Positions 31,425-46,014 of a DNA stretch of 64,000 nucleotides are shown one piece after another. The position numbers and the translations under genes are program-made. The DNA comes from a virus. Its lineage: Duplodnaviria; Caudoviricetes. The stretch covers positions 1,912-65,911 of IMG/VR virus record IMGVR_UViG_3300007735_000777; one strand, given 5' to 3'. Below the pieces are notes generated by a model, which searched no databases, had not been told where the DNA came from, and saw only the letters and a list, made by a program, of their open reading frames with translations. How positions within the stretch are numbered: position 1 is the first letter of the stretch; each line of letters opens with the position of its first letter.

Positions 31425-31447
31425 AAAAAAGCCGCCCGAAGGCGGCT
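31425..31447 (-). terminator. Intrinsic terminator ending the early region
   Basis: GCCGCC stem with a short TTCG-containing loop, then T6, on the - strand. Confidence 0.85.
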
Positions 31448-31467
31448 AGGACTTACCCTAACAAATG

Positions 31468-31947
31468 TTAGAGTTGGGTGATTTCACGTTGGATGTACCA
31501 GACCGCTTTCTCCAAGTCTTGTTTCTTGTTGCCTTTGTGGTCGGCTCGGCTGATGTACTTCACGGCGTTACCCATGTTGTAGTTCAGCTTTTTGGCTTCA
31601 ATGAAGTCGATGGTCTCGATTCCACCTACTTTGTAATGGTAGGGGTGATTCACTGGGTCAGGTTGCGGTTCAATCATTGTGATGGCTTCTGGTACAGGTA
31701 CAGGTACAGGTACAGGTAACAACTCGGGAGGTTGCCACAGGGTGGGTTTGCGCTTGCGCCCCTTGGTCAACTTGTATATCTGTTGAGCGTCTTTTAAACG
31801 CTTATCCATCGTTTTCCTACACATGTACGCGATCTGGTACGTGGTGTTGAACTTCTTGGCTACTTCACTAGCCGTAGCTGTTGGGTTTGCGGTGAAGTAC
31901 TCACGCATCTTTGCGGCGCGGCTTGCGGTTGCTTTCTTAGTTGCCAT
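31468..31947 (-). CDS. HTH plus DUF3310 (T7 gp1.7-like nucleotide kinase domain) protein
   Basis: ASEVAKKFNTTYQIAY HTH; DPVNHP.HY..GGIETID...GNAVKY..R...K....DLEKA.WY. Confidence 0.8.
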   Translation of the reverse strand: MATKKATASRAAKMREYFTANPTATASEVAKKFNTTYQIAYMCRKTMDKRLKDAQQIYKLTKGRKRKPTLWQPPELLPVPVPVPVPEAITMIEPQPDPVNHPYHYKVGGIETIDFIEAKKLNYNMGNAVKYISRADHKGNKKQDLEKAVWYIQREITQL

Positions 31948-33556: not shown

Positions 33557-33935
33557 AATTCTTCTCCTTCAACCTTGCTTCTAACTTCTCGGCAAAAGGC
33601 AGTACGCAGTCATGAAAGTCACCTGCTTCTACTTTTCGCCAAATCGTTTCAATCTCATCAACCGTCAGCCCTACCCATGTGCGCTGTGGTGAAGTGATGT
33701 AGAGAAGATTGCGTCCAACAGGCAGATCATGCCCCCAATCGTCAAACTCTCTCTCGCCAATTCCAGAGATAAAGATTGACGCTACAGGCTCCTGCTCTGG
33801 CTGTGCCAAGGCTTCTTTGCATTTGTCAATGACCGCTTCGTACATCAACAAATATTCACGGCGTTCGTTTTCAATAATATAGTGCTTGTTGTCTTCCAAA
33901 AACTCAAGTGCCAGCTTCAATGCTTCATCAGTCAT
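33549..33935 (-). CDS. Early protein, W.GLT.E family
   Basis: ALAQPEQEPVA..RTWVGLTVDEI..LEARLKEKNCA. Confidence 0.7.
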   Translation of the reverse strand: MTDEALKLALEFLEDNKHYIIENERREYLLMYEAVIDKCKEALAQPEQEPVASIFISGIGEREFDDWGHDLPVGRNLLYITSPQRTWVGLTVDEIETIWRKVEAGDFHDCVLPFAEKLEARLKEKNCA

Positions 33936-34147
33936 GCGTAGTCTCCTTCTTCTGTATGTTCAAGTAGCCGCTTTTGCAAACGGGCTATGCGCTTCTCGTT
34001 GTACTGCACTATAGACACTGCGTATTCCACAGCAGACTCAGCTTCAAGTTTTTTCTGGTGCGCTTCACGCAGTTCTTTGGCAATGATCTCCCGCAGGGTA
34101 CGGGAGCGCAGAACTTCACGGATGAACTTGCTGATGGCTTCTCTCAT
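33932..34147 (-). CDS. Small coiled-coil early protein
   Basis: ATGA coupling; start MREAIS. Confidence 0.65.
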   Translation of the reverse strand: MREAISKFIREVLRSRTLREIIAKELREAHQKKLEAESAVEYAVSIVQYNEKRIARLQKRLLEHTEEGDYA

Positions 34148-34362
34148 TCTGTACCTCCATACATACTCCACTCCTCTGCCTTCTTCGCCATGAACAAGCC
34201 TTCTGCTCTGGTCATCTTGGATGAGCGAATAAACAACTCCCCCTCAAAGTCGTACCCAATAACCATAACATCTGTTAGCTCCATTTGCAGTGCGGACTGC
34301 AACGCTTGTTCAGCCGTGTAGTTTTCGGATGCTGGCAAAGAGATTACGTTTTCGTTGTTCAT
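34144..34362 (-). CDS. Small early protein
   Basis: ATGA coupling at both ends. Confidence 0.65.
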   Translation of the reverse strand: MNNENVISLPASENYTAEQALQSALQMELTDVMVIGYDFEGELFIRSSKMTRAEGLFMAKKAEEWSMYGGTE

Positions 34363-34535
34363 CGCTTCATCCCCCTAATAAAAGTTGCAAACGAACTGAT
34401 GGTGTCACTGCCAAAACCCTTCATCTTCTCGATGGCTTGCGCTGTCTCTTCCAGTACGCTGTTACGCAGTTCATCGTAGAACTCCTGTTGTGTCTTGGCT
34501 TTGCCTAGCTCTGTTGGTTTGTTGAAGTCACTCAT
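34359..34535 (-). CDS. Small early protein (58 aa, below track cut-off)
   Basis: MSDFNKPTELGK...IRGMKR; ATGA-coupled with GGAG SD. Confidence 0.6.
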   Translation of the reverse strand: MSDFNKPTELGKAKTQQEFYDELRNSVLEETAQAIEKMKGFGSDTISSFATFIRGMKR

Positions 34536-34756
34536 GCTTGTCTCCTTTTCAAAATATGTGCAACGCTTTCATGGTTAGGGTAGTGGTCAATCAACACTCG
34601 ACAACACCTGTCGCACAGACCATCATGGTTATGCAGTCCCTCGTGTGTGTAGTGCCAGCACCGTGGGCACTTGGTGTAGTCGGGGTCATTTGCCAAAGAC
34701 CGAACAACGACAGTTGGTTGCGGAGAACTTAACCGCTCATACTGCTCGTCAGTCAT
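34532..34756 (-). CDS. Stand-alone FPG/IleRS-type zinc finger protein
   Basis: KCPRCWHY...GLCDRC. Confidence 0.65.
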   Translation of the reverse strand: MTDEQYERLSSPQPTVVVRSLANDPDYTKCPRCWHYTHEGLHNHDGLCDRCCRVLIDHYPNHESVAHILKRRQA

Positions 34757-34967
34757 TTTTCATTTCCCTTGTGATCTTTGGCTTCCTGCCCATGACATAG
34801 AGCCAGTATGTGAATGACTTATGCCCTGCTCTCCATGCGCCAATGTTTAAACGGACTGCGTACAAAAAAATGCCCCACTTGTAAGCCCAAGCAAGTTCTT
34901 TCTGCATTGAATCCCAATCAACATAGTTGCCGTTGCTGTATGTGATTCTGTATTTGTACGTACTCAT
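34749..34967 (-). CDS. Small early protein
   Basis: Start MSTYKY coupled to upstream TGA; GGAGG SD. Confidence 0.55.
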   Translation of the reverse strand: MSTYKYRITYSNGNYVDWDSMQKELAWAYKWGIFLYAVRLNIGAWRAGHKSFTYWLYVMGRKPKITREMKND

Positions 34968-35080
34968 TCTTCGCCTCCGTCTTGTATCCAAAAAATCGCC
35001 CATATAAAAATTGCCCCCGCAGCGATGCCTACGAAGCCGCCCAATGCAAGTACTGCAATCCAAGTAAGCGCATCTAACAT
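34964..35080 (-). CDS. 38-aa membrane peptide
   Basis: MLDALTWIAVLALGGFVGIAAGAIFIWAIFWIQDGGEE; ATG lies inside the 12-bp box. Confidence 0.6.
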   Translation of the reverse strand: MLDALTWIAVLALGGFVGIAAGAIFIWAIFWIQDGGEE

Positions 35081-35083
35081 TTG

Positions 35084-35638
35084 TTATCCCCTTTTCGTTT
35101 CTCTGCGTACATACCCACGCTTGGCAAGCTCCTCGGTTACGCTAGTACCACCACGCAGTGCGTTCTTAGCCGCCGCCATGACCTCATCATTGATTATGTT
35201 GTCGTGCGATAACATAAGTGTCTTAGCCAACTTAGCCGTTTCTTTCTTGACCCAGTCGAACGTGCGGTACACACCCTTAGTTAACCGCGCAATATCTGGC
35301 GGATACCCACTTGCAATCTGCCGTATGTATAGCATCGGAACCAAGTCGTCTGCATGAGCGCAGTCAAACCCAAACCATTTGCGCCCATCCATCTTGTCGC
35401 CAAAGGTCAGCCCACCGTGCGCGTACACACCAATTTCATCCGCATCTTGGTAGCTCATGCCATGTAGTTTGTGCCCTATGGGTACTGCAACATACCCACA
35501 CAGACTCAGCGTACTCATGTTGCGTTTGACACGGCAATGGTATCCCGTCTTTTTGTCTACCCACTCCTCAAAGTCAGGCTCGTTCTCCCACGGCCTGTGT
35601 TCTATGAGTAGCTTTGCTTTTTGCATGTCATCTAACAT
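35084..35638 (-). CDS. Conserved phage protein (CGYV..HGGLTF..GFDCAH)
   Basis: Recognisable motif family; start and stop both lie in 12-bp boxes. Confidence 0.8.
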   Translation of the reverse strand: MLDDMQKAKLLIEHRPWENEPDFEEWVDKKTGYHCRVKRNMSTLSLCGYVAVPIGHKLHGMSYQDADEIGVYAHGGLTFGDKMDGRKWFGFDCAHADDLVPMLYIRQIASGYPPDIARLTKGVYRTFDWVKKETAKLAKTLMLSHDNIINDEVMAAAKNALRGGTSVTEELAKRGYVRRETKRG

Positions 35639-35641
35639 TTG

Positions 35642-36511
35642 TTATTCCTCCTCTACCAACACGAACGTCTCATCATTCACCCTGCACCCTGTGCCTGATA
35701 CAAATTGCTCGGCTTGTACAAGTTTGAGCATACCTAGTTTGCCACGCATCCACTCGGGGAGCGTATTATCATCAAACAAGTCCACCTTGTCACCTATCTT
35801 GACTAGGTAACTACCCCCATCTTTGATAACCAGTGCGGTCTTACCCGCCTCGAACGCAGTCTTAGCTTTCTCAATGGTCATCATCTCATCGGTCAGGCGT
35901 TCCCTCTCCTGCATAGCGTTCTTAACTTTATTGCGCTCATTCTCTGCACATGTTTCAATATGCTCAAGGAACAAATGAAAGCCAGTTCCCATGATGAAAT
36001 CCTGCGCGGCAACTTTGACAGTGCTATCAACGGCGTAGTGATCGCGCTCCTTCAGCCGCTTCTGCTTGTTAATAACTGAACCCGCATTCTCAATAGCCTT
36101 CTCGATACGCTCGTTGGGCTTGAGTTTGAAGAACATCTTCTTCGCCATGAGCACGGCTTTGCTCGCATCTTCCGTGCGATACCCCCTTGCGCGTTCCCGC
36201 GTCTTGGCAATCCGAGCATTGGAAATACAGATTACTTCCCTGTTGCCCAGCCGTTCTTTGTCAATCGTGCCTATCTGTTCCCCATGCTCAAGTACGCTGA
36301 ATGATATAAGCGCTAGTCTGTCGCTACCACCCCACACCCATTCAGTGGCAACGAATCTCCACAGTGGGTTCAAAGTGGCCAGCCGTTGAATGACTGGGTC
36401 TAGTAGCCTATGTACATACGTACTGGAAATGTCGCCCGTGGATTTGCGCCGCTCCAACTCGGTTTGCAACTTCGCGCTGATCTCTACGTTGCTCAGTTCT
36501 AATGTGTTCAT
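35642..36511 (-). CDS. Hypothetical early protein
   Basis: 289-aa ORF with AGGAG SD. Confidence 0.8.
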   Translation of the reverse strand: MNTLELSNVEISAKLQTELERRKSTGDISSTYVHRLLDPVIQRLATLNPLWRFVATEWVWGGSDRLALISFSVLEHGEQIGTIDKERLGNREVICISNARIAKTRERARGYRTEDASKAVLMAKKMFFKLKPNERIEKAIENAGSVINKQKRLKERDHYAVDSTVKVAAQDFIMGTGFHLFLEHIETCAENERNKVKNAMQERERLTDEMMTIEKAKTAFEAGKTALVIKDGGSYLVKIGDKVDLFDDNTLPEWMRGKLGMLKLVQAEQFVSGTGCRVNDETFVLVEEE

Positions 36512-36533
36512 GTTCTTCTCCTAACAAATGTTA

Positions 36534-37385
36534 TTACCACTCGAAACGCTTGAGGATGTCGTCCACCTTGGACTTCAACTCGCTACGTGAATCTGCATGT
36601 TCCTTGATGTCCTCAATGTCAGCAGTCACCATCGCCAACTCCAACTGTCTACGTGCTTCTTCCAGCTTGGGGTCGTTGGTCACGTTCAGCTTGGTCAGCA
36701 AAGAACAAAGTTCGAGAGGATTGGATACCAACGTATCGTGGTAACGCTTCTTGCCGTCACCATCCTTGTCGGTCAGCTTCTCAGAGATACCAACCAACAT
36801 CTCGTGCAGTCTGTCCCACGGCTCACGCATGGCCTCGGCCAGCTTGCGATCTTGCTGTGCCATGAACTCGCTACGCATCTCCTCCAAGTCGTACGCAGGA
36901 ATGTCTAAGCGGAAGTCGCCCGCTTCGGGCACGGGCTTGACCGTGCGCTTGAACCCGAACTTCAACCTAACATCTGTTATGTCGGGGTAGTCCTCGGCCT
37001 TGTACATAGTGCCTAAGTTAATAGGTGCTTCTGCAACCAGACGCGGGTACTCGATGAAGAAGTTGTCGCACATCATGTTGAATGTCTGCTCAAACCCATT
37101 CATGGTCTGCTTGTAGTCCATGAACAACGCAGTCGGTAACATACGCTCGCCCTTGTCAGCCCACGGCAGTGTGTGCTTGTTGTGATACAGACGAACCCTT
37201 GCGGCGAAGTCTGATATGTCTTTGCGTAGCGAAGTACCTGCAAACAGATTCTTCTTGGTCTGACTCGCACCACGAACCGCAGACGCATCGCTGTTCACCT
37301 TGTCGGTGATCTCCCTGTCCAACTTGGACGCAGGCCATACGCTGATATTCAATTCCACTAACAATGCTGATGAACTAATACTCAT
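36534..37385 (-). CDS. DUF3150-like protein
   Basis: LLVELNISVW..KLD, TLPW...G.R.LP, LNVTNDPKL; adjacent to the AAA/VWA pair. Confidence 0.6.
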   Translation of the reverse strand: MSISSSALLVELNISVWPASKLDREITDKVNSDASAVRGASQTKKNLFAGTSLRKDISDFAARVRLYHNKHTLPWADKGERMLPTALFMDYKQTMNGFEQTFNMMCDNFFIEYPRLVAEAPINLGTMYKAEDYPDITDVRLKFGFKRTVKPVPEAGDFRLDIPAYDLEEMRSEFMAQQDRKLAEAMREPWDRLHEMLVGISEKLTDKDGDGKKRYHDTLVSNPLELCSLLTKLNVTNDPKLEEARRQLELAMVTADIEDIKEHADSRSELKSKVDDILKRFEW

Positions 37386-37394
37386 GATTTCCCC

Positions 37395-37556
37395 TTAGTT
37401 AAAAATTTCTTCGACTGACTCAACACGCCAACTACCATCTGCCTTCGATGATTCAACAGACCTTGCCGCAATCACTTCCGCCTCATCTTCGTTCTCGGCT
37501 TCCACTGTTATAGTTATGTACGACGTGTACTCCAACTCCACTTCATAGGTTTTCAT
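37395..37556 (-). CDS. Small acidic protein (MKTYEV..VEAENEDEA)
   Basis: 53-aa ORF coupled to the upstream gene. Confidence 0.6.
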   Translation of the reverse strand: MKTYEVELEYTSYITITVEAENEDEAEVIAARSVESSKADGSWRVESVEEIFN

Positions 37557-37708
37557 TGTCCTTCTCCCAAAAGTCTTAAATATGTTTCCGCTAACGCCTT
37601 GGTGTTGACCTTAATCAACACTGTGTTGGTATGGGTGTCGATTACTCTCCACTTACCATACCTCCACTTGATTTTGTACCGGTCTATGTACACCCACTGC
37701 CCTAACAT
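37553..37708 (-). CDS. Small early protein (MLGQW...)
   Basis: ATG inside the 12-bp box; ATGA coupling at its end. Confidence 0.5.
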   Translation of the reverse strand: MLGQWVYIDRYKIKWRYGKWRVIDTHTNTVLIKVNTKALAETYLRLLGEGQ

Positions 37709-37717
37709 TTGTTATGT

Positions 37718-38935
37718 TCAGTCTTTGATGTGGATGGTCTTGCCATTGCCAGCCTCACCATCGAAGTAGTCACCGACAATGCACCACAGCGTAGGTGCAG
37801 TCCATTCACTGCCCCAGTCATCGCCCACGCAACCATCGGTCAGGATGATGACGCACTCGGGCTTGATGTTCTTCTCCTTGAGATACTCTGATACACAGCT
37901 TGGGCTTGTGCCACCGCCACCCTTGGGGCGTGTTGAGTTGATGATGTTGGCGGCTTCACCGTCACCATAAGTCTCGTGCCCCACCACACTGCTACCCCAA
38001 TACAGCAAGTCCACACACGCAGGGTTTACTTCTTCTGCGATACCCTTAACCTCGGACAAGAACTCGGCAAGCTCGCCATCACCCACCGAACCCGATGTGT
38101 CCACCGCGATAACCAAGTGGCCTACCTTCTCACCAATCAGCGTCGGCATGTACATGCCTGTGGATAAGAACCTACGGTTAACCCTGCGCCATGACGATGC
38201 GTCCTTGGAATTGCAGATTGATTTGACAAAGTCACGCAGGACTTCGCGCCAGTTGACCTTCGGCTCCATCAGGTCGGCAAGCTCACGGTCTGACCCATCT
38301 GCTCCAGTACCAGCAAGTTTCTGTCGTGCCATCATGCCTTGGCGTATCGCTTGGTCGATCTCGCGCTCAAGCTCACGCTTCTCTTCCTCGGTCATGTTCT
38401 TGGCATCTTCCCAATCGTGGTCGTCAAAGTCACCATCGCCATCACCTTCGCCGTTGCCACCACCGCCATCCTTCTGCTCCTGCTTGAGAATGTCGAACAC
38501 TTGCTTGGTATTCAGGCCACGGAATCGCTCGTCAATGAAGCCCATCGCCTGACCTGCCATCTTGTGCCCCTTGGGGTAGCGCGGCATCGCAATGAACTTC
38601 TCATCGGGGTCGAGGTCTCTGAGCATCAGGTTAATAACGTAGTCACAAGCACGGTTAGCCAGCTTGTGGTTCTCGTCATGCAACTTCCTCCATGTGGTCA
38701 GGTGTCGGTACATCTTGTGCGATGCTTCGTGCGCAATCAAGAACCCAAGCTCTGGGTCACGCAAATCTGCTACGAACTTGCGCCCATACTTCTCGTCACG
38801 CCCATTGGTACTTGCGGTCGGGATGTTATCCACTACGCTCGTACGTCCAACCATCAACACGCCAGACAGCAATGCGAACTTGGGGTTACGCATCAACATG
38901 ATCTTGGCCTTCTGAACTTTTCTTTCTTCTAACAT
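37718..38935 (-). CDS. Metallopeptidase-like plus VWA domain protein (DUF2201-like)
   Basis: TASTNG, HEASH zincin motif, MIDAS DTSGS, GGGT, ILTDG. Confidence 0.9.
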   Translation of the reverse strand: MLEERKVQKAKIMLMRNPKFALLSGVLMVGRTSVVDNIPTASTNGRDEKYGRKFVADLRDPELGFLIAHEASHKMYRHLTTWRKLHDENHKLANRACDYVINLMLRDLDPDEKFIAMPRYPKGHKMAGQAMGFIDERFRGLNTKQVFDILKQEQKDGGGGNGEGDGDGDFDDHDWEDAKNMTEEEKRELEREIDQAIRQGMMARQKLAGTGADGSDRELADLMEPKVNWREVLRDFVKSICNSKDASSWRRVNRRFLSTGMYMPTLIGEKVGHLVIAVDTSGSVGDGELAEFLSEVKGIAEEVNPACVDLLYWGSSVVGHETYGDGEAANIINSTRPKGGGGTSPSCVSEYLKEKNIKPECVIILTDGCVGDDWGSEWTAPTLWCIVGDYFDGEAGNGKTIHIKD

Positions 38936-38938
38936 TTG

Positions 38939-39184
38939 TTAGCTCCCTTCGTTTAACATATCTGCAATCTTCTGACACACATTGTGTTCCTTGTGTTGGA
39001 ACACGGTCGGCCATCCACTGATGTCTCTGTCTCTCACACAGTGCCCCAATACATCAATGATGTGGTTGTTGGAATCAAACTTAGTTACCCACTGCACAAA
39101 GTACCGCGCTCTCAACTGCTCACGCAGTCTCTTGTTCGTGGGGTGGTCAACGCTTGTTGTGCTCACGCTGTGCCTCCTCCTCAA
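38939..39184 (-). CDS. Small early protein (start uncertain)
   Basis: Stop lies in a 12-bp box. Confidence 0.55.
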   Translation of the reverse strand: MRRRHSVSTTSVDHPTNKRLREQLRARYFVQWVTKFDSNNHIIDVLGHCVRDRDISGWPTVFQHKEHNVCQKIADMLNEGS

Positions 39185-39449
39185 TGTTTATCAGCATGAA
39201 CATCGCTGACTCCATCTGCTCCAAGTCCTTGGTCTCAAGGACTACGGTTTGTTTCTTCTCCCATGTGTTCGGGTCTTGCCGCCACTTCACTAGGGTGAAC
39301 TCAAACTCTGCCATGTACAGCAACTCAAACATGCGTTTCTTGATGAGAAGTTGGTAGGCAGAGTCGAGTCTTTTCAACTTCTTCCCCAACCATTCCAACT
39401 TCTCAAGCCTCAACGGCAGTTCGCGTTTGTTTTCAATGTGTACGTACAT
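39147..39449 (-). CDS. Small early protein (MYVHIE...)
   Basis: ATG at the edge of the 12-bp box. Confidence 0.6.
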   Translation of the reverse strand: MYVHIENKRELPLRLEKLEWLGKKLKRLDSAYQLLIKKRMFELLYMAEFEFTLVKWRQDPNTWEKKQTVVLETKDLEQMESAMFMLINIEEEAQREHNKR

Positions 39450-39457
39450 AACATTTG

Positions 39458-40546
39458 TTAGAGCAGGTCTTGGTTCTTGGCTACCCAATTACTGAACGCC
39501 TTGGAACTGAACGCAATCGCTTGCTTGTCCTTGGCCTTGGCGATGTTGATAGCGAACACGGCTTGCCACTCGGCATCGAATCGCTCAAGGTATTCCATGA
39601 ACGGTGTAATCGTGTCCTTGGTGATACGTGAGATAGCGCCAAACACCACAATCGCACACGCGCCCGGACTTGTCGGTATCTTCGTAGTCTTAGGATGCTC
39701 GATGGTTGACTCCCATGTCGGCAGTTGATCTGCAAACTCGATGTACGCCTGCATGTCCCGCGCACCTGATTCACCCAACGCACCAGCCAACGCCGCAATC
39801 ACCGCATCGGGGTCGTTCTCTCTACGTGTTCGGACAATGTTGCTTGCAGTTGCCAGAGAACGTGGAGATACGAACGCACGCTGTGGTTTCTTGGGGTTGA
39901 AGATGTACGGGTTGTCGCCATGCCCATCGGTGTAGCTCGCCAGTACGTGAGGGAATCGGCTCACCCATGCACAGACTTCAGGCTCAATACCGTTAGGGAT
40001 AGCCCATTCCAACCATTGTTCTGCGGTCGGCTTGGCAATGGTTATGGGTACTAAGCGATTGGCACTGTGTTGTTTCAGCGAGTCTCCGACACCGTCAGTG
40101 GTCAAGTTGCCAGTCAGGAACACAATGGTGTTCTTGTCCAGTGAAATGTCACCGAGTCGCGGGTTGGCCTTCTCGAACATGGGGTGAAGCATATTCTTCA
40201 CAGGGTCTGCGCCCTTGGTGTACTCGTCAAGCATGATGACCACGGGCTTGTGCTCATGCACCTTGAACCGAGCGTTGGGGTAGTAGCGTGTGGTCTTGGT
40301 CTCGTGGTCGATCACAGGCATTGCAATGTCGCCCAAATCCATATTGGGTACGTCAATATACGCATGGTCGTAGCCCAGACCACCTGCCACCTGCTCAAGT
40401 AGGGAGGACTTGCCGATGCCCGGCTCGCCTTGCAACAAGAAGATGGTCTCGGGGTTGGTACGGATAAGCGTTGCCGCTTGCTTCAAAGTCACTGACTTAC
40501 CAAATTTAACTTCTGACATTTCTGATACTCCTGATGTGCCTAACAT
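39458..40546 (-). CDS. MoxR-like AAA+ ATPase (start 40546 or 40519)
   Basis: GEPGIGKS, MLDE, LTGN, NRL, SPRS. Confidence 0.9.
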   Translation of the reverse strand: MLGTSGVSEMSEVKFGKSVTLKQAATLIRTNPETIFLLQGEPGIGKSSLLEQVAGGLGYDHAYIDVPNMDLGDIAMPVIDHETKTTRYYPNARFKVHEHKPVVIMLDEYTKGADPVKNMLHPMFEKANPRLGDISLDKNTIVFLTGNLTTDGVGDSLKQHSANRLVPITIAKPTAEQWLEWAIPNGIEPEVCAWVSRFPHVLASYTDGHGDNPYIFNPKKPQRAFVSPRSLATASNIVRTRRENDPDAVIAALAGALGESGARDMQAYIEFADQLPTWESTIEHPKTTKIPTSPGACAIVVFGAISRITKDTITPFMEYLERFDAEWQAVFAINIAKAKDKQAIAFSSKAFSNWVAKNQDLL

Positions 40547-40592
40547 TTGTTATGTTTCGGCGGTTGAAAAAACTTTCCCACTCGCAACCTAT

Positions 40593-40621
40593 ATTATAAC
40601 ACAAAGTTACATATAAGTCAA
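40593..40621 (-). promoter_or_regulatory. Strong sigma70 early promoter
   Basis: TTGACT-17 nt-TATAAT. Confidence 0.85.
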
Positions 40622-40626
40622 GTTGT

Positions 40627-40812
40627 TTACCCAATGTTCCGCTTGAACTCCTCAAACTCGGCAACCACCTTGTCACGCACACTCTTGTTCTCAATCAGTA
40701 CACGAGCGAAGAAATTGGCACCCTCGGCTTGTGCCTTGTACTTAAGTGCGTACCCCGTAGCGAGTACGGCCCAGCAGAACAACACAATCTCCATCAACGA
40801 AAACTCAATCAT
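40627..40812 (-). CDS. Small membrane protein (MIEFSL...)
   Basis: AAGGAG SD; N-terminal TM. Confidence 0.6.
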   Translation of the reverse strand: MIEFSLMEIVLFCWAVLATGYALKYKAQAEGANFFARVLIENKSVRDKVVAEFEEFKRNIG

Positions 40813-40837
40813 TTCTTTCTCCTTTGTATAACATTTG

Positions 40838-41809
40838 TTATTCCCAACTCTGCATCCAGTGCTCATAGATGCCGCTCGACACCTTGCCCATCGGCAACTC
40901 GTAGCGCACCAGCACCTGATCTGCGTACAGCATAAACAATACATCATCAAGCAGTGGCACGATATGCTTGGACTGCGCATAGACCTGATCGGTGCGAATG
41001 TCCATCTCATCGGTCTCCAACTTGGCGATCAACACCAACGCCGCCTTGTAGAAGTTCGTATGCTTGTCCTCCTCGGGTTGGTCGGGGCGAATCAAATACT
41101 CGAACGCCTTGACTGATGCCTCGTACTGGTCAGGTCTGACTGCGCTGTAATTCATGCTCTGTTTGCCGCGCTTGTCCATGTACTTGTACTCACGTATGGA
41201 TGCTAGACTACCTTGTCCGAACGCTGACTTCAATTCCTCTCTCGGTATGACAACGTAGTTCTTCTCAGGTTGCCAACGATTTGGTTTTGCCGCTTCGGTG
41301 CGTAGGTTCACGAACCCTTTCAAGTACTTGTAGAACTCACCGTACCTAGACCTAACATTTGTTATTTCTTTGCGGTTGAGCTTCCATCCCCATTGCGTCT
41401 TGGCATTCAGGACATGCCAGTTCCCCTCCTCCATACGCAGACGCAACTTGTCCTTGTCGGCAAGCGTGTACTTGCCGCCGCCGATTGTCAGCACAGTCGT
41501 GCGCCGTGCACCGTGCGCACTGATACCCAACACTTGCCCGATGAACTGATGCGTGGATACGGAGTTGTACCCATCAATGAATACCACCACGTCCCCATCT
41601 GGCTCGAACGTAACGACCGGAGTCTTATATAACACCAACTCAATCGCATCCCCATTCTTGCGTATGTGGTACGTGTCTGCATCCCGTCGGTCACCCAACG
41701 GCCTGACTTCAGGCACACGCCCACGTATGGGCTTGCTGTTGTTGAATATGCTCAGTGCCTCTTGGTAGTACAGCACTCGCGGTACTCGTCTAACTGTTGC
41801 ATGTCCCAT
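40838..41809 (-). CDS. Hypothetical early protein
   Basis: 323-aa ORF (KPIRG...RPLG.RR..LYKTPVV); contains an internal 12-bp box. Confidence 0.8.
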   Translation of the reverse strand: MGHATVRRVPRVLYYQEALSIFNNSKPIRGRVPEVRPLGDRRDADTYHIRKNGDAIELVLYKTPVVTFEPDGDVVVFIDGYNSVSTHQFIGQVLGISAHGARRTTVLTIGGGKYTLADKDKLRLRMEEGNWHVLNAKTQWGWKLNRKEITNVRSRYGEFYKYLKGFVNLRTEAAKPNRWQPEKNYVVIPREELKSAFGQGSLASIREYKYMDKRGKQSMNYSAVRPDQYEASVKAFEYLIRPDQPEEDKHTNFYKAALVLIAKLETDEMDIRTDQVYAQSKHIVPLLDDVLFMLYADQVLVRYELPMGKVSSGIYEHWMQSWE

Positions 41810-41810
41810 C

Positions 41811-42041
41811 TCACACCACCTTATTCAGTTTCTCTAACACATACTCACGCATCAGTGCGTAAGCCTCGTCCTTGCGACCCTCTCGGTCGTGTCGCCATAT
41901 CTTGGTCAACGTCTCAGCATCGTCAAAGCTCACGCCTTGCGTACCTCGTTCTTTCAACTCCTCCACCAAGTCCTCGGTGTCAAAGTCGCTCAAGTCCACG
42001 TCTACATCTACTTCAGTCGTTATTGTTTTGTATCCCATCAC
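41811..42041 (-). CDS. Small acidic protein (VDLSDFDTEDLVEELKERG)
   Basis: GGAGG SD; coupled. Confidence 0.7.
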   Translation of the reverse strand: MMGYKTITTEVDVDVDLSDFDTEDLVEELKERGTQGVSFDDAETLTKIWRHDREGRKDEAYALMREYVLEKLNKVV

Positions 42042-42199
42042 ACACCTCCAATCGTTTTGTATGCCTTGATCTTTTTCAGCGATGGATGGGAAGTCTTGAA
42101 CCTCTCCTTCGCCAGCTTCATGTTCTTGGCTACGATACTCTCGGCAACCCAGTTGCTGAATCTATCGCACCATCCTGTTACGTAGTATCTACCTAACAT
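42038..42199 (-). CDS. Small basic protein (MLGRYY...)
   Basis: 53 aa; ATG inside the 12-bp box. Confidence 0.55.
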   Translation of the reverse strand: MLGRYYVTGWCDRFSNWVAESIVAKNMKLAKERFKTSHPSLKKIKAYKTIGGV

Positions 42200-42312
42200 T
42201 TGTTAGCCCCCCTTTGCTTGAGAATCCGCATCCAATCAATGCGGGACAAAAACCATCTGAACAATGGTGTCGAACAGTCTTGGCAGAGCACCCGCAAGTT
42301 GTCCCCGTTCAT
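42193..42312 (-). CDS. 39-aa protein (MNGDNLRVLCQDC...)
   Basis: ATGA-coupled; TAG stop in the right arm of the box. Confidence 0.45.
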   Translation of the reverse strand: MNGDNLRVLCQDCSTPLFRWFLSRIDWMRILKQRGANKC

Positions 42313-42497
42313 AACCTCACCTCTCTTTGTTTCACCTTCACCTCATACCCAAGCATCTGTATGCGCTTGATGTCTGGTGGTAGCAGTGTCTTAGTACCTG
42401 CAATGTCTGCGAATATCTGTGCCTTGTCACACACTGGATACACCTTGGGCTGTCCGTACACGTCTTTGATTTCAATGGTTATTGTTTGCTCTAACAT
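42309..42497 (-). CDS. Small conserved phage protein (DVYG..KVYPVC..A..FA.IAGTKTL)
   Basis: ATG inside the 12-bp box. Confidence 0.7.
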   Translation of the reverse strand: MLEQTITIEIKDVYGQPKVYPVCDKAQIFADIAGTKTLLPPDIKRIQMLGYEVKVKQREVRL

Positions 42498-42500
42498 TTG

Positions 42501-42698
42501 TTATTCCTTTACTTCAATGTCTTTGTTTACTAACTTCTGAAACCTTTCGAGAACCTCTCGGTCGTCATGGTCGAGCACGAACTCAAGCACGAACCCATGC
42601 CCAAGGTTGTCGTTAGCCTCCATGAATGAGTATGTGTCGCGGTCGTACAGATACAGCGAACCCGAATCTATACCCCGCAACAATACGAACTTCTTCAT
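42501..42698 (-). CDS. Small early protein
   Basis: GGAGG SD; stop in box. Confidence 0.6.
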   Translation of the reverse strand: MKKFVLLRGIDSGSLYLYDRDTYSFMEANDNLGHGFVLEFVLDHDDREVLERFQKLVNKDIEVKE

Positions 42699-42901
42699 TC
42701 CTCCATCTCAAAGTAGTCGTAGTCACGCTCAGCACCGGCATGGCGCTCCACATCCAACAAGTCCATCGCCTCGGTTATCAGGCAGTGGGTATCCTCCAAG
42801 TACGATGCTTGGTACTCGGCAGGGTTCTTCAGATAGTTGCGTAGGTCTAACTCCACTGCAACCAACAGCTTCATGGCTTTCTCGTAGTCGTGCTCAGTCA
42901 T
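42695..42901 (-). CDS. Small acidic early protein (MTEHDY...)
   Basis: AAGGAG SD; coupled. Confidence 0.6.
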   Translation of the reverse strand: MTEHDYEKAMKLLVAVELDLRNYLKNPAEYQASYLEDTHCLITEAMDLLDVERHAGAERDYDYFEMEE

Positions 42902-43058
42902 GGCTCTCTCCTTTGATGTAGTTCTTGAGCGTTTGGATGTAGAAGAATATGTGGTCGTCAGGGTTGCCGCCCATCTCCACAAACACTTTGCAGTCATCCT
43001 CCTCTTCGGCAAGGTAATCAATTACTGTCTTTAATGCGGTCAATTCTTGGTTAGTCAT
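42894..43058 (-). CDS. Small early protein (MTNQEL...)
   Basis: AAGGAG SD; coupled. Confidence 0.55.
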   Translation of the reverse strand: MTNQELTALKTVIDYLAEEEDDCKVFVEMGGNPDDHIFFYIQTLKNYIKGESHD

Positions 43059-43227
43059 CGTTGTTCTCCTTGATTTCAACCATGCGCAACACACCCTCTG
43101 GTGCAGTTGCAACCACCTTGTCGTATTGCTCCCATGCCTGACAAGCAGGGCACTCGGCATCGTGCTTGGGGCAACGCTCGCCCCAATAGAACACCATCGC
43201 TTCATGTATTGCGTTACCCTCAGTCAT
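43051..43227 (-). CDS. Small Cys-containing early protein
   Basis: YWGERC....ECPACQAW; GAGGAG SD. Confidence 0.6.
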   Translation of the reverse strand: MTEGNAIHEAMVFYWGERCPKHDAECPACQAWEQYDKVVATAPEGVLRMVEIKENNDD

Positions 43228-43384
43228 CTTCGCTCTCCTCAACTTCAATGAACTCATTGCACTCAGCCATGTCTTTCACATCGACCTCGCTCATGTACCC
43301 AAGGCAAGCCTTGGCGATGGACTCCCACGACACCACGCCTTCCTCGGCGAGTTCGTACAGTTTGTTTGTCGCTTCTCTGCTCAT
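43220..43384 (-). CDS. Small acidic early protein (MSREATNKL...)
   Basis: 54 aa; AAGGAG SD; ATGA coupling. Confidence 0.6.
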   Translation of the reverse strand: MSREATNKLYELAEEGVVSWESIAKACLGYMSEVDVKDMAECNEFIEVEESEDD

Positions 43385-43611
43385 GTTCTCAACTCCTTTT
43401 GGTTAGTTTGCTTCAAGGTTGTGGGTGCTTGAGTAGGTGTTACCAACTGATACGGCCCTTTGCCGTACTCTTGCACGATGCACCAGCTTGATCGGGCTTC
43501 GGATGCGGCGTGTTCACGGTCACGCTCGCAGAACAAACAGAATGCTTGGTATCTTGAAGCGGGTACATCGTCACCGCAGTCAACGCATATCTTCCAGTCA
43601 AAATCTAACAT
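43381..43611 (-). CDS. Small C4 zinc-finger protein (TraR/DksA-finger-like)
   Basis: CVDCGDDVPASR...CLFC; ATG in box. Confidence 0.65.
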   Translation of the reverse strand: MLDFDWKICVDCGDDVPASRYQAFCLFCERDREHAASEARSSWCIVQEYGKGPYQLVTPTQAPTTLKQTNQKELRT

Positions 43612-43614
43612 TTG

Positions 43615-43845
43615 TTACCCCTCCCGTGATTCTTGGTTGTGGTTAGCATAGTATTGGGTTATCTTGCTCAGTTCTTGAGCAAGCGTGTTGAGCACCACAT
43701 GAAGCGCAGTGGTGACAGCCGCAGGGTTGTTGCTACCCTTGGCGATGTCGTAGGCGTAGGAGATGGACTCCCTGATGGAGTCCTTGGTTGCAAACAGTGG
43801 GTTGTACAAACCCGATGCAAGTTGGGCGATTTCTTTATCTAACAT
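43615..43845 (-). CDS. Small early protein
   Basis: Start and stop both in 12-bp boxes. Confidence 0.7.
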   Translation of the reverse strand: MLDKEIAQLASGLYNPLFATKDSIRESISYAYDIAKGSNNPAAVTTALHVVLNTLAQELSKITQYYANHNQESREG

Positions 43846-43910
43846 TTGTTACCTCTGACCTTTCTGATTTTGGGTTTGGCTGAGAGACGGTTTTCTCCCA
43901 ACCAGCTTAT

Positions 43911-43939
43911 ATTATACCACAAAGTTATGATATAGTCAA
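43911..43939 (-). promoter_or_regulatory. Strong sigma70 early promoter
   Basis: TTGACT-17 nt-TATAAT with TGn. Confidence 0.85.
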
Positions 43940-43967
43940 GTTTATTGACGTGGTGTTGGCGCAGTGT

Positions 43968-44171
43968 TCAGCCATGCAAGCACTCGAAGTATTGACCGAT
44001 GATTGCGGTGTCCTCGAAGTTGTTGGTGTCGGTTTGCAGTTGGTCAGCGTCATGGTCTTGGAACCACAGGGTGTCATCGGTGTTGTTACACCTCACCTCG
44101 TATGCCCAGCCGTTGCCGTAGCTTTTGATGTTGTACTTGCCATCGTGTGTGTCGAACTCGTTTGTCGTCAT
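43968..44171 (-). CDS. Small acidic early protein
   Basis: AGAAAGGT SD; downstream of a consensus promoter. Confidence 0.65.
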   Translation of the reverse strand: MTTNEFDTHDGKYNIKSYGNGWAYEVRCNNTDDTLWFQDHDADQLQTDTNNFEDTAIIGQYFECLHG

Positions 44172-44256
44172 GGTGTACCTTTCTGATTGAACCTAACATT
44201 TGTTATGTTTTCGGGGTTTTGGCAGGGCTGTTTTTGTTTTTTCCCAACCAGCTTAT

Positions 44257-44285
44257 ATTATACCACAAAGTTACATGAATGTCAA
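44257..44285 (-). promoter_or_regulatory. Perfect-consensus sigma70 early promoter
   Basis: TTGACA-17 nt-TATAAT with TGn; 32 bp (44242-44273) identical to 43896-43927. Confidence 0.9.
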
Positions 44286-44451
44286 ATTTTTAGGCGGTGT
44301 GTGGTGTTATAAAAGTTGGTAATGTTATGAGGGGTTTTTGGGTTTGTAACGCAAAAACATAACGCAAAAAAATCAATGGAATCAATAGGTTAGGAAAGAA
44401 AAAATTGAATATGTTATAATGTTATGAGAAAAAAAGTATATATAGCGCCGT

Positions 44452-44472
44452 GAACTTGACATTGTCAAGTTC
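44452..44472. repeat. Palindrome GAACTTGACA-T-TGTCAAGTTC
   Basis: Perfect 10-bp arms; related sites at 25514 and 31401. Confidence 0.85.
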
Positions 44473-44631
44473 TGGGTATGTGTGATGTTATGCACTTGCT
44501 GTGTTGCGCATTTTGGCGGGTTCTCACTATACCCGTGTAACATTGTAACATATAACAATGCTTTAAAATCAACAACTTGCGTGTGATACGATATAACATT
44601 ACCCTTCAAAACATAACATTTGTTAGGTTCG

Positions 44632-44758
44632 AGGCTACCCCCGCGCAGGGAACTGGTCTTGTCTAAGGGTTTGTCCCTATGGAAAAAGCCAAAAAAAAAT
44701 GAGACACTGCGTGCAGTGTCTCACTTAATCGCAAGGCTACCCCCGCGCAGAGAACTGG
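44632..44758. repeat. 25-bp direct repeats AGGCTACCCCCGCGCAG(G/A)GAACTGG flanking a hairpin
   Basis: Copies at 44632-44656 and 44734-44758; inverted repeat at 44700-44723. Confidence 0.85.
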
Positions 44759-44782
44759 CATTCGGGAAAAGTCGGGCGAAAC

Positions 44783-44845
44783 AAAAACCCGTCATAACAA
44801 AAGTTATGACGGGCAGACGCAAAAAAGCCCGCATGAAGCGGGCTT
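44783..44845 (-). terminator. Two tandem intrinsic terminators
   Basis: GCCCGC-N5-GCGGGC + T6, then CCCGTCATAAC-N4-GTTATGACGGG + T5 on the - strand. Confidence 0.75.
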
Positions 44846-44864
44846 AGTGTTAAGAGGGTAAGGG

Positions 44865-45062
44865 TTAGTCTGTTAGTAGGGCAGTATGCACAACCCCGCG
44901 ACCACGCGCCAAAATCATTTCTTGAATGATGGCTTCGCGCAATTCATTGATTAAGCGGTGTGCATCAAACTTTGGGCTTTCCTTGAAATCAAACCCGTTC
45001 AAGTAAGCGCATTCGACCATGAGTTGCAGTTGTTGCAGTTTTTTCTCTGTGCTGTGCATCAT
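44865..45062 (-). CDS. Small early protein
   Basis: GGAG SD before MMHSTE; followed by terminators. Confidence 0.55.
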   Translation of the reverse strand: MMHSTEKKLQQLQLMVECAYLNGFDFKESPKFDAHRLINELREAIIQEMILARGRGVVHTALLTD

Positions 45063-45124
45063 TTTGAATTCTCCGAACATAACAAATGTTATAAATAGGG
45101 CAGGGTAAACCCTGCCCTGCCCGA

Positions 45125-45646
45125 TTAACCTAATTCATCGATGTTGCCACCGAGAATCGCGTAAGCAGTCATAAGCTCGCCCTTGACCTCAGACGCCTTG
45201 CACTCAGTGCCCGCTTCCTCAGCCTTGAATATCCGATTGATAAGGGTTTTCAATTCGGCAAGGGTTTTCGCGTCAACATCCTGCGAACCACCGGATACCT
45301 TGTTACCCGCTGTCACGTACCCGCTCGCTTCCTTGACACGTTGCCAGTAGACGTTGATTGTGGCTTCACCGAAACCCTCATCCTTGAATGCTTGGACGAA
45401 CAGCTTGCGCTCATCATTCACACCGGCTTTGAGCTTACCCTTAAGCTCGTACCACTTGCTCGTTACGTTGCCCTCATTGTCAACAAGGTCAAAGGCTGAG
45501 CAAAGGCCGTTAGCATAAGCGCTGAGCACTTGGCCGGTTTTCTTGGCCGACTTGACTAGATCGGTGCGAAGCTCGAACAAGGGGACAACCGGAGTGACGC
45601 CGACTTGTGTGACAACCGCGCCTGCTACCTGAGTGAGTGTATTCAT
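45125..45646 (-). CDS. First gene of the leftward early block, hypothetical
   Basis: 173-aa ORF with GAAAGG SD, upstream promoter and downstream hairpin GGGCAGGG-TAAA-CCCTGCCC. Confidence 0.75.
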   Translation of the reverse strand: MNTLTQVAGAVVTQVGVTPVVPLFELRTDLVKSAKKTGQVLSAYANGLCSAFDLVDNEGNVTSKWYELKGKLKAGVNDERKLFVQAFKDEGFGEATINVYWQRVKEASGYVTAGNKVSGGSQDVDAKTLAELKTLINRIFKAEEAGTECKASEVKGELMTAYAILGGNIDELG

Positions 45647-45725
45647 TTTCTAACCTTTCAAAAACATCTAACATGAAACATAACATCTGTTATGTATGCA
45701 ACCGATTATCCGTTTGCATGGGTAT

Positions 45726-45754
45726 ATTATACCACAAAATAATAGACAATGCAA
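45726..45754 (-). promoter_or_regulatory. Sigma70 early promoter
   Basis: TTGCAT-17 nt-TATAAT; shares TTTGTGGTATAATATA with the 43911 and 44257 promoters. Confidence 0.75.
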
Positions 45755-46014
45755 ATACAGCGTAAACAATAAATAAAAGAATATTCTAGTATGGGGACGG
45801 GCCTAACAATAGTTAGATTATCAAATTGATAAACCCCACCACCCCAAAAAATAGGAAAAGGGAGGTGCCGCACTTACACTGTGCGGAACACACCCGGTAC
45901 CAACATCCATACTTTTTATAACAATACCCCCCTCCCCCCTTTAAGTTTCCAGTCGGCCCTAATAAGTATCCATCCACAGAAACACCCCCCGTCACTTTTT
46001 ATTTTGGGTTCCCG

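Follow-up and report, generated by a model that had tools for sequence, protein, structure and literature searches.

The early leftward region of this phage carries a short palindrome, TAACAAATGTTA (the box), and its strong over-representation is confirmed. The box occurs as 17 exact copies in the window (the whole stretch of 64,000 nucleotides that was analyzed), where ~0.1–0.3 copies are expected. With middling confidence, we interpret the box as the site of a phage-specific trans-acting factor in an early operator system, with the first early protein as the candidate factor. Sequence comparison indicates that the conserved feature is the inverted repeat and not the ATG within it. The use of the box as a stop-start junction is secondary.

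Copies of the box and their positions

When one mismatch was allowed, 22 copies of TAACAAATGTTA were found in the window, compared to 0.34 expected and a shuffle maximum of 2. The pattern TAACANNTGTTA (TAACA-NN-TGTTA) occurred 20 times vs. 0.06 expected. In the whole 65,911-bp record, the exact box was present 14 times on the minus strand and 3 times on the plus strand, and the reversed control pattern had 0 copies. Every box copy lies within the early leftward region (31.4–45.7 kb). The ATG orientation falls on the coding strand in 14 of the 17 exact copies, and 16 of the 17 are intergenic or touch a gene boundary. Among the 20 sites, 4 are located 34–60 nt past a promoter −10, and the others are at junctions or intragenic (41353, 34266, and 36968 in the window). 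The copies and variants are as follows.

31459..31470, plus strand: box in reversed orientation as read on the coding strand; the TTA of this box provides the TAA stop of the DUF3310 gene 31468-31947
34266..34277, minus strand: GA-centre variant TAACAGATGTTA, inside gene 34144-34362
35075..35086, minus strand: box; ends 35084-35638 (TAA) and starts 34964-35080 (ATG), which encodes a 38-aa membrane peptide
35633..35644, minus strand: box; ends 35642-36511 (TAA) and starts 35084-35638 (ATG)
36522..36533, plus strand: reversed box (TAACATTTGTTAGGAGAAGAACATG as read on the coding strand), after the stop of 36534-37385 and ahead of ATG 36511
36968..36979, minus strand: GA-centre variant, inside gene 36534-37385
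37703..37714, minus strand: box; ATG of 37553-37708
38930..38941, minus strand: box; ends 38939-39166 (TAA) and starts the vWA/DUF2201 gene 37718-38935 (ATG)
39449..39460, minus strand: box; ends the AAA ATPase gene (TAA), and the final A of the box is also the A of the ATG of 39147-39449
40541..40552, minus strand: box in the 5′ leader downstream of promoter P40621, 41 nt past the −10 of this consensus promoter
40829..40840, minus strand: box; TAA stop of 40838-41809
41353..41364, minus strand: intragenic box in 40838-41809, encoding ITNVR
42194..42205, minus strand: box; ATG of 42038-42199
42492..42503, minus strand: box; ends 42501-42698 (TAA) and starts 42309-42497 (ATG)
43606..43617, minus strand: box; ends 43615-43845 (TAA) and starts 43381-43611 (ATG)
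43840..43851, minus strand: box; ATG of 43615-43845, the first gene downstream of P43939
44194..44205, minus strand: box in the 5′ leader downstream of P44285, ahead of ATG 44171
44614..44625, minus strand: box bordering the non-coding half-site array
45080..45091, plus strand: reversed box between the first early gene and 44865-45080; as at 39449, its last A doubles as the A of the next ATG (TTATG)
45681..45692, minus strand: GA-centre variant in the leader of the first early gene, as part of a longer palindrome (ACATAAC-AGAT-GTTATGT)
45804..45815, no strand: variant TAACTATTGTTA (CTAAC-TATT-GTTAG), ~50 nt upstream of the P45755 −35 and thus outside the predicted early transcript

The surrounding control features are listed below; the promoters and terminators are consensus predictions only.

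45726..45755, minus strand: first early promoter P45755, sigma-70-like with an extended −10 (10–12 of 12 matches, TG present)
45125..45646, minus strand: first early gene (173 aa), encoding the candidate box-specific factor
44697..44845, minus strand: three terminator-like hairpins at the end of the first early unit, with a 1-mismatch box at the tip of the middle hairpin (44787-44814)
44290..44640, no strand: non-coding array of 11 half-sites ([AG]TAACA, TAACG, or TGTTA[TC])
44257-44285, 43911-43939, and 40593-40621: further promoters, sigma-70-like predictions
31387-31414: predicted promoter P31414, which drives the replication module without boxes

The half-sites of the array change orientation near 44510. 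One 400-bp bin holds 8 extra half-sites, with a mean of ~0.44 per bin, and a relative (G005) has 10 CGTAACA repeats in the same inverted layout. The range given in the original prediction, 35075..43851, is correct for the copies inside it but misses those at 31459, 44194, 44614, and 45080. It also omits the variant at 45804-45815 and the GA-centre variants at 34266 and 45681, and the variant at 36968 had not been listed.

Box types and codon choice in related phages

About 120 related loci were examined (one search gave 314 relatives). Most of them carry TAAC-N2-5-GTTA palindromes of 11, 12, or 13 bp, and at least three sites were present in 110 of 124 related loci. Variants without an ATG were found upstream of the Shine-Dalgarno sequence, namely CCCTAACGCGTTAGGG in L036 and TAAC-N3-GTTA in G004, where the centre of the box is free. 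The centre of the 11-mer is A or T at nearly equal frequency (10 vs. 8 in G005).

Many box copies of the relatives are located inside conserved genes, where they are formed by synonymous codons only if the box type fits. The ATPase peptide ASNIVRT is encoded by box-forming codons in 16/16 phages with 11-mers, 8/27 with 12-mers, 0/3 with 13-mers, and 0/4 without boxes. When all peptides at this ATPase site are counted, the corresponding fractions are 35/40, 13/46, 0/5, and 0/9, and the counts at the vWA site are 40/45 vs. 2/57. In the 323-aa protein (40838-41809), the peptide itself switches from xN to [IVL]T, which fits the 12-mer. The site orthologous to 41353 is an 11-mer (xNNVR) in 20/31 phages of the 11-mer type and a 12-mer ([IVL]TNVR) in 12/23 phages of the 12-mer type. 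These sites are selected at the nucleotide level. Within conserved enzymes, the choice of codons, and even of residues, is shaped by the box and depends on the version that each phage carries.

The relatives G014 and G015 are 92–97% identical in the early and replication region, yet their boxes have changed in concert: at seven orthologous sites, G014 has a 12-mer and G015 a 13-mer. Such an 11/12/13-bp series, in near-identical genomes with box length as the only difference, would be a natural experiment in the co-evolution of DNA-binding specificity and its targets. Mixed lengths also occur within one genome (17 12-mers and 5 13-mers in L009; 6 and 6 in L012), which is awkward for a rigid dimer.

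Gene junctions, N-termini, and translation

The box had been described as a ready-made stop-start junction that dictates protein N-termini. One box does supply a TAA and an in-frame ATG at 35075, 35633, 38930, 42492, and 43606, a start codon at 37703, 42194, and 43840, and a stop codon at 39449 and 40829. The genes 35084-35638 and 43615-43845 are indeed bounded by two boxes, the end of box 36522 contributes to a Shine-Dalgarno sequence (TTAGGAG), and the unrelated products begin MLD, MLE, or MLG in the translations. The possible start at 40541 did not hold, as the ATPase probably starts at the ATG at 40519, with AGGAG 8 nt upstream that is conserved in G005. Shine-Dalgarno runs are located 1–3 nt upstream of the box at 8 of the 9 box-borne starts, with none at 37703.

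Comparison of orthologues, which the original prediction had named as a refuting test, supports the effect on N-termini. All 33 vWA orthologues with the aligned start in a box begin MLEER. The five without the right half-site begin MVEER (L034 and L035) or MNEER (L040, L044, and L045), and remoter box-less orthologues begin MAIDK, MPKDK, or MDLQK. The N-terminus of the Zn-ribbon gene 43381-43611 tracks the box in the same way. The box can be used in annotation, as it reliably marks true start codons in such genomes.

With TAA on the far left and ATG in the right half, the box fits gene junctions in a genome where intergenic space is almost nil. As a by-product of this placement, codons 1–2 and the first base of codon 3 are fixed in many genes, so that a putative regulatory site shapes protein sequence (ML followed by D, E, or G). 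That the box exists as a stop-start junction is not supported, given the ATG-free variants, the intragenic copies, and the pre-promoter copy. Together with the symmetry, the first two of these indicate that the start is not the defining feature. Because intragenic copies are fitted to the box type and others precede the first early promoter, the box is better described as a nucleic-acid signal with a genome-specific reader.

This signal could be read in mRNA, as also proposed originally, perhaps as a small protein-stabilized hairpin that controls initiation or re-initiation at many early genes. The start codons in 8–9 boxes just after a Shine-Dalgarno sequence and the prevailing ATG orientation on the coding strand would fit such an RNA operator. 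With flanks, the pairing probability of the arms averages 0.54, and CUAAC/GUUAG stems with 3–5-nt loops would allow the observed length variation. Against it, many copies are intragenic, in leaders far from starts, post-stop, or pre-promoter, and some variants have no ATG. The 12-mer alone has no RNA fold of its own (0.0 kcal/mol). Positions 5 and 7/8 remain conserved and complementary, although hairpin pairing is impossible with a 1–2-nt loop. No match was found in Rfam, and no RNA-binding family in Pfam or PHROG. Cluster K mycobacteriophages reportedly repeat a short motif, the start-associated sequence, at the translation starts of many genes, and T4 RegA targets and the MS2 coat-protein operator are translational operators. 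The Cluster K and RegA motifs lack symmetry and are linked to the initiation region, whereas the box is symmetric, also intragenic, and has ATG-free forms; unlike sites of the RegA or MS2 type, its copies are not confined to initiation regions. We consider the RNA operator unlikely. The half-site array in non-coding DNA behind three terminators and the conserved copy upstream of the first early promoter point to DNA, and the most likely reader is a symmetric dimer that recognizes the box as duplex DNA.

The position at gene borders could alternatively serve mainly for swapping or deleting early cassettes among co-infecting relatives. L009, L012, and L014 lack the 184-aa gene 35084-35638 and one box copy, exactly from box to box, and a metagenome contig joins 38942 to 39462, again from box to box, with 28 other letters between. 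However, alignment breakpoints are not enriched at box junctions relative to other gene junctions (8.8 vs. 6.3 loci per junction; Mann-Whitney p = 0.17). A recombination linker needs no palindrome and would not explain the intragenic selection or the type-specific codons. We regard this explanation as highly improbable.

The first early gene and the proposed operator system

Box length tracks one gene only, the first early gene. In the best-hit table, the 12-mer-type protein was found in 25/25 12-mer loci with a hit, and the G005 type in 17/18 11-mer loci. The 11-mer/12-mer trait requires 1 change on the tree of the first early protein compared to 3–5 on the trees of seven other genes (common taxa, n = 24–39). 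Phages with 13-mers, G004-type boxes, or no boxes have unrelated proteins at this position, the box-less ones also with a gene of similar size. The 13-mer-type protein also occurs in a second lineage (87% identity), in which 4/4 nearby sites are 13-mers. As an alternative to binding, box type and this gene could go together because they are linked in one control-region module.

The first early protein is predicted to form a homodimer. The score of the dimer model was 0.73, with 0.00 for the best control; this score was reached by 20/30 proteins solved as pairs and 1/23 solved as single chains. Contact agreement between the runs was at least 77%, and partner pLDDT at least 78. The protein is acidic (pI 5.3) and had no match in Pfam, PHROG, or PDB. 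Foldseek gave E > 1, and VIA gave Z ≤6.4 on helical pieces; sequence and fold searches revealed no nucleic-acid-binding mark. Its family comprises 505 proteins, all without annotation. The promoter of the gene is bracketed by two box variants, and a box ~150–160 nt before its start is also present in five relatives (G005, G006, G013, G018, and G038). The product of this gene is, from these patterns, the best candidate for the box factor.

According to the proposed mechanism, the first early protein would bind as a dimer to ~20 boxes, which are spaced at ~750 bp and confined to the early region from P45755 to the terminator at 31447. Promoter-proximal and intragenic roadblocks might then shut off or time early transcription in a stoperator-like manner, while the replication and structural modules without boxes would stay on. 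Binding itself, DNA rather than RNA as the target, and repression are what we infer, and for the direction of regulation we can offer only a guess.

Stoperators of Cluster A mycobacteriophages (L5 and Bxb1) are described, in the available portion of PMC6550527, as 20–30 repressor sites per genome, mostly off promoters in short intergenic gaps, that are thought to block elongation. The same portion describes them as 13–14 bp long, without dyad symmetry, monomer-bound, and oriented with transcription; they occur in both genome arms, serve the immunity repressor of temperate phages, and co-vary in motif with this repressor (PMC6550527). The 20 sites described here are likewise numerous and mostly away from promoters. 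Box length follows the first early protein (1 vs. 3–5 changes), which would parallel the stoperator motif and its repressor if this protein binds the box. In contrast to stoperators, the box is palindromic, limited to the early region, varied in spacer length, and often located on starts or inside genes. PHROGs (46 + 32 proteins) and Pfam scans of this phage, unlike stoperator phages, revealed no integrase, excisionase, or known repressor family. The best reading of the box set is an operator system with many sites, similar to stoperators, in a phage that looks lytic. In Streptomyces phage phiC31, the c repressor is said to bind conserved inverted repeats scattered in the early region, some off promoters. 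Many copies of one inverted repeat across the early region are common to both phages; phiC31 is reportedly temperate, with a 17-bp repeat and a known repressor family.

The 12 bases of the box form the core of the hly PrfA box of Listeria (TTAACA-N2-TGTTAA) and of the Aca11 inverted repeat AGTATATAACAAATGTTATATACT, and the Aca7 repeat is ATAAC-TCA-GTTAT (available portions of PMC7221254 and PMC12658196). PrfA, Aca11, and Aca7 are described there as dimeric helix-turn-helix proteins that bind duplex DNA, the hly box being such a dimer site (PMC7221254, PMC12658196). The outer T/A of the PrfA box is not conserved here, and these systems have one or two operators at promoters, compared to ~20 copies in this phage. 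No Crp/Fnr or Aca relative was found among the phage proteins in Pfam or PHROGs, and a 79-aa HTH protein had no PDB sequence match.

The match to the PrfA core (PMC7221254, available portion) would also suit a host regulator, for instance a PrfA-like dimer of the Crp/Fnr type or a repressor resembling LexA, used to time or defer early expression. Phages with host CtrA sites are published (available portion of PMC9437464), and G014 and G015 differ most in their structural and tail genes (65–91% identity), which could mean different hosts. However, box length tracks a phage gene, the core gene set is retained in box-less relatives, and close relatives would require hosts with regulator spacing 1 bp apart. 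A host factor is thus quite unlikely. A phage-encoded dimer would remain the preferred reader.

Spacing-coded control in lytic phages is a rather doubtful extension of this reading. In this new kind of system, an immediate-early dimer without a known fold would bind all early transcription units of the genome that encodes it. The 11-, 12-, and 13-bp classes would be incompatibility or exclusion groups among relatives that occur together, in which a resident phage silences the early genes of superinfecting phages of the same class. A class switch would begin when the first early gene is replaced, and sites across the genome would then be converted, with protein recoding included.

The uncultured phages of freshwater type that are defined by the box form a large and apparently abundant group, which would have in common a palindromic control system with many sites and a candidate family of regulators. 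The genome of the present phage, also of freshwater source, is 65.9 kb with terminal repeats. Its box at 31459 lies 11 nt before the terminator 31430-31447 and also precedes P31414. This site is the sole one retained in the otherwise box-less G032 and G033, and G002 has a 10-mer variant at the equivalent place.

Distribution of the box and its relation to early promoters

The window covers bases 1912–65911 of the 65,911-bp virus record, which carries direct terminal repeats. Structural, lysis, and packaging genes occupy the + strand from 46.1 kb onward and at 0.1–20.8 kb, and a long leftward block on the − strand extends from 46.2 to 20.9 kb. This block starts with small early genes, continues with an AAA ATPase and vWA/DUF2201 pair and, after a terminator and promoter, contains the genes for DNA polymerase, exonuclease, helicase, and primase. 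Neither an integrase nor a known repressor nor an RNA polymerase was found when 46 + 32 proteins were compared with PHROGs and in Pfam scans. No near-identical phage was found in GenBank; the nearest by DNA polymerase was 37% identical, and KPP25 was too distant to be used as a comparison phage. The regulatory elements predicted in the leftward block, which are consensus matches rather than mapped sites, are:

First hexamers 45755, 44285, 43939, 40621, and 31414, − strand: predicted leftward sigma-70-like promoters with extended −10
44845–44697, − strand: three predicted terminator-like hairpins
31447–31430, − strand: predicted terminator-like hairpin

The box TAACAAATGTTA is present in 17 exact copies in the window, and with at most one mismatch it gives 22 matches compared to 0.34 expected. 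TAACANNTGTTA occurs 20 times (0.06 expected). All 20 copies lie within 31459–45692, at a density of ~1 per 750 bp, and none was found in the replication module behind the promoter at 31414 or in the + strand genes of the whole window. All but one of the exact copies (16/17) are at a gene boundary or intergenic; the intragenic ones are the exact copy at 41353 and two variants with a GA centre.

The promoter of the first early gene (first hexamer at 45755) is flanked by two box variants, at about −90 and +30. This bracketing suggests that the first early gene is autoregulated. At the three other early promoters, a box lies 41–60 nt past the predicted −10, and further boxes follow every 0.2–1.2 kb up to the terminator at 31447. 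Behind this terminator, boxes are absent from the next promoter and from everything that follows it. From this layout, we infer that a candidate factor made first would limit or shut off early transcription by blocking the polymerase, and that the box-free replication genes would be left on. Activation, anti-termination, or DNA organization as the function of the box would fit this layout equally well.

Effect of the box on protein sequences

The original prediction described the box as a stop–start junction that dictates protein N-termini, and all its coordinates were confirmed. Five boxes supply a stop together with the next start (35075, 35633, 38930, 42492, and 43606), three supply further starts (37703, 42194, and 43840), and two supply stops (39449 and 40829), whereas the reversed copy at 36522 contributes to the Shine-Dalgarno sequence TTAGGAG. 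The products indeed begin with MLD, MLE, or MLG, and the gene at 35084–35638 is enclosed by two boxes. A box is also present at 40541, proposed as a possible start, but it more likely lies in a leader because the Shine-Dalgarno sequence belongs to the ATG at 40519. Of note, one start inside a box opens a 38-aa predicted membrane peptide (34964–35080, − strand; MLDALTWIAVLALGG…), which is kept in the related locus L009 and genome G005 and is easily missed by annotation.

The prediction that box-less orthologues should not begin with ML was examined on 51 orthologues of the vWA protein (37718–38935). All 33 orthologues with the aligned start inside a box begin with MLEER, whereas the N-terminus is MVEER in two with CTAACAATGGTTG and MNEER in three that lack a box. 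The 13 remoter orthologues have longer N-termini; five of these start with ML from an upstream box, and the other eight have no box and start with MA, MP, MD, or MT. Box-less orthologues thus start otherwise, and the box therefore fixes codon 2 and the first base of codon 3. The initiation region GGAGCTAAC(A)ATG, common across the family, resembles the left half of the box. It is also present in the box-less relative G001 and at box-free starts of the studied phage (31947, 31043, and 25474), and may have given rise to the left half of the box.

Relatives were collected by two vWA protein searches, which returned 58 and 80 loci. Of the 124 distinct loci, 110 carry at least three TAAC-N2-5-GTTA sites, usually 10–25 sites within 21 kb. 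The sites form length classes of 11 bp (TAACA-[A/T]-TGTTA), 12 bp (TAACA-NN-TGTTA, the class of the studied phage), and 13 bp (TAACA-NNN-TGTTA). The form in the related genome G004 is TAAC-NNN-GTTA with a free centre, and in the locus L036 it is CCCTAACGCGTTAGGG; both lack an ATG and are positioned upstream of the Shine-Dalgarno sequence. The outer pairs co-vary (C..G, G..C, and A..T). What stays constant is therefore a short inverted repeat and not a stop–start cassette; this part of the original prediction is not supported.

No alternative palindromes were found in the box-less genomes G001, G002, and G003. The terminator-adjoining site 31459 is the only one retained in G002 and in the nearly box-less G032/G033, and it may be the ancestral one. 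The contigs G032 and G033 (loci L191 and L192, from related samples) match at 99.7–99.95% identity over segments of 20 kb and 9.6 kb that are permuted in order, and thus represent one phage lineage assembled twice. In G004, five tandem 21-bp repeats (…GACTCCGGTTAAGGC…) were observed in a structural-region gene (58462–58546).

In G004 and G005, about half of the sites are intragenic and occupy the same places in the genes for the ATPase, the vWA protein, and a 323-aa protein (40838–41809 in the studied phage). These places were tabulated over all loci. The ATPase peptide ASNIVRT is written TCT AAC ATT GTT AGx, and thus as the box, in 16/16 11-mer phages, 8/27 12-mer phages, and in none of the three 13-mer or four box-less phages. 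With any peptide at this site, a box is present in 35/40 11-mer, 13/46 12-mer, 0/5 13-mer, and 0/9 box-less phages. Similarly, the vWA site carries a box in 40/45 11-mer phages compared to 2/57 12-mer phages. In the 323-aa protein, an 11-mer encoding xN[N/I/S/L/K]VR was found in 20/31 11-mer phages, and a 12-mer encoding [I/V/L]TNVR in 12/23 12-mer phages, including the studied phage (41353). These class-specific counts indicate that the site is selected wherever coding allows, in the length class of the genome itself, and that selection for the box has altered residues. As judged from these sequences, the effect described for N-termini extends to internal protein positions. The selected, class-specific intragenic sites also rule out a function tied to initiation.

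Recognition in DNA or RNA

The box is probably read as duplex DNA. Complementarity (A...T) extends to the fifth base of the arms in both 11- and 12-mers, even though a hairpin closed by this pair would have a loop of one or two bases. The centre is free (AA, AT, TT, GA, AC, and AG), as in the sites of symmetric dimers. In all six box-bearing genomes compared, a box or variant precedes the start of the first early gene by ~150–160 nt; in the studied phage, this variant is ~50 nt upstream of the −35 of the first early promoter, and therefore outside the predicted transcript. The 12 box bases are also the core of the PrfA box (PMC7221254) and of the Aca11 operator (PMC12658196), each bound as duplex DNA by a dimer. 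The mixed box lengths within single genomes speak against recognition in DNA, and in RNA with flanks the arms pair at a mean probability of 0.54. The 12-mer RNA alone has no structure of its own, and no Rfam match was found. Overall, we consider recognition in DNA about twice as probable as recognition in RNA, or more.

The non-coding stretch 44290–44640, behind the three terminators, contains 11 half-sites ([AG]TAACA or TGTTA[TC]) arranged as two opposed groups, and G005 has a similar array; this, too, speaks for recognition in DNA. Possible roles of this stretch are those of an origin, a nucleation site, or a promoter for a small RNA. Its segment at ~44540–44570 (…GCATTGTTATATGTTACAATG…) seems to be conserved across box types and includes the extended −10-like TGTTACAAT. 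Close to this stretch, the tip of a terminator-like hairpin (44787–44814, − strand) is a one-mismatch box, CATAAC-TTTT-GTTATG.

The candidate box-reading factor

The related genomes G014 and G015 share 92–97% identity across the early and replication region. Seven of their orthologous sites have the 12-bp form in G014 and the 13-bp form in G015, and two others are 13-mers in either genome. This concerted change calls for a trans-acting, genome-specific candidate factor with differing spacing preference as the reader of the box.

As candidates for this specificity factor, three proteins with DNA-binding folds were examined and rejected. The 79-aa HTH_3 protein (23899–24138), found in 23/31 and 13/20 records searched and missing from the box-less G001, was rejected: the box-less G033 has an intact copy with an unchanged recognition helix, and three residues differ between the 12-mer G014 and the 13-mer G015. 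The RHH-like 65-aa protein (31937–32134) is identical over 56 aa in the 12-mer L027 and the 13-mer L028 and persists in box-less loci at 72–89% identity. The HTH_7 protein (32131–32553) is present in just 3/13 genomes. Reading of the box as a hairpin promoter by a phage RNA polymerase was also dismissed, because no polymerase was found and the 2887-aa protein of the structural block matches LPD39, HATPase, and DarB-like families instead.

In comparisons of syntenic proteins, the gene whose type tracks the box type is the first early gene (45125–45646, − strand, 173 aa). Its product was aligned by hhalign with those of 12-mer phages at a probability of 99.7–100%, and more distantly with that of the 11-mer G005 (92%); the proteins at the same position in the 13-mer G013, in G004, and in the box-less G001, G002, and G032 were unrelated (<2%). 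Among loci with a hit in the best-hit table, the 12-mer-type protein was found in 25/25 12-mer loci and the G005-type in 17/18 11-mer loci; the 75 loci without a hit are mostly contigs that end before the gene. Trees built for the same taxa required one change between 11-mer and 12-mer for the first early protein, compared to five each for vWA, ATPase, and RHH, four each for a 283-aa and a Zn-ribbon protein, and three each for a 53-aa and the 323-aa protein (n = 24–39; 6–12 changes with shuffled labels; a quick method, with weak trees for short proteins). The 13-mer-type protein also occurs in a second lineage (87% identity), in which four 13-mers lie around the gene.

None of the 505 relatives of the first early protein is annotated. 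Its model is all-helical at middling confidence (pLDDT 72), and fold searches with this model gave no clear match. Homodimer prediction scored 0.73 compared to 0.00 for the best control, a mark reached by 20/30 proteins solved as pairs and 1/23 solved as single chains; at least 77% of contacts agree between runs, with pLDDT of at least 78. The protein is acidic (pI 5.3), which lends no support to nucleic-acid binding.

Among described systems, the stoperator network of Cluster A mycobacteriophages is the closest, with many sites, mostly off promoters, and a motif that co-varies with the repressor (PMC6550527). However, the box system is without the defining asymmetry, orientation, monomer binding, and temperate immunity of stoperators. 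It further differs in its spacer-length classes, in the sites fused to start codons, in the recoding of conserved proteins according to box type, and in having a candidate regulator with no known fold, in a phage in which no lysogeny genes were found. No phage report of the motif was found in the literature searched by its four spellings.

The box-bounded 184-aa gene at 35084–35638 (− strand; phrog_2164, weak MazG-like match) is present in some close relatives and, together with one box, cleanly gone from box to box in three others. In one metagenome contig, 38942–39462 is replaced from box to box. However, box junctions showed no excess of alignment breakpoints over other gene junctions (p = 0.17), and we regard cassette exchange as a side effect at most.

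Two + strand proteins were also noted. The 2887-aa protein (12145–20808), probably an injected polyvalent protein, has weak Pfam matches to LPD39 and HATPase_c, and over its final 800 residues it resembles a DarB-like antirestriction PHROG (1.3e-51). A 370-aa protein (292–1404), adjoining the tail fibre genes, matches PHROGs annotated as ferrochelatase and 2OG-Fe(II) oxygenase and may be an auxiliary or DNA-modification gene product.
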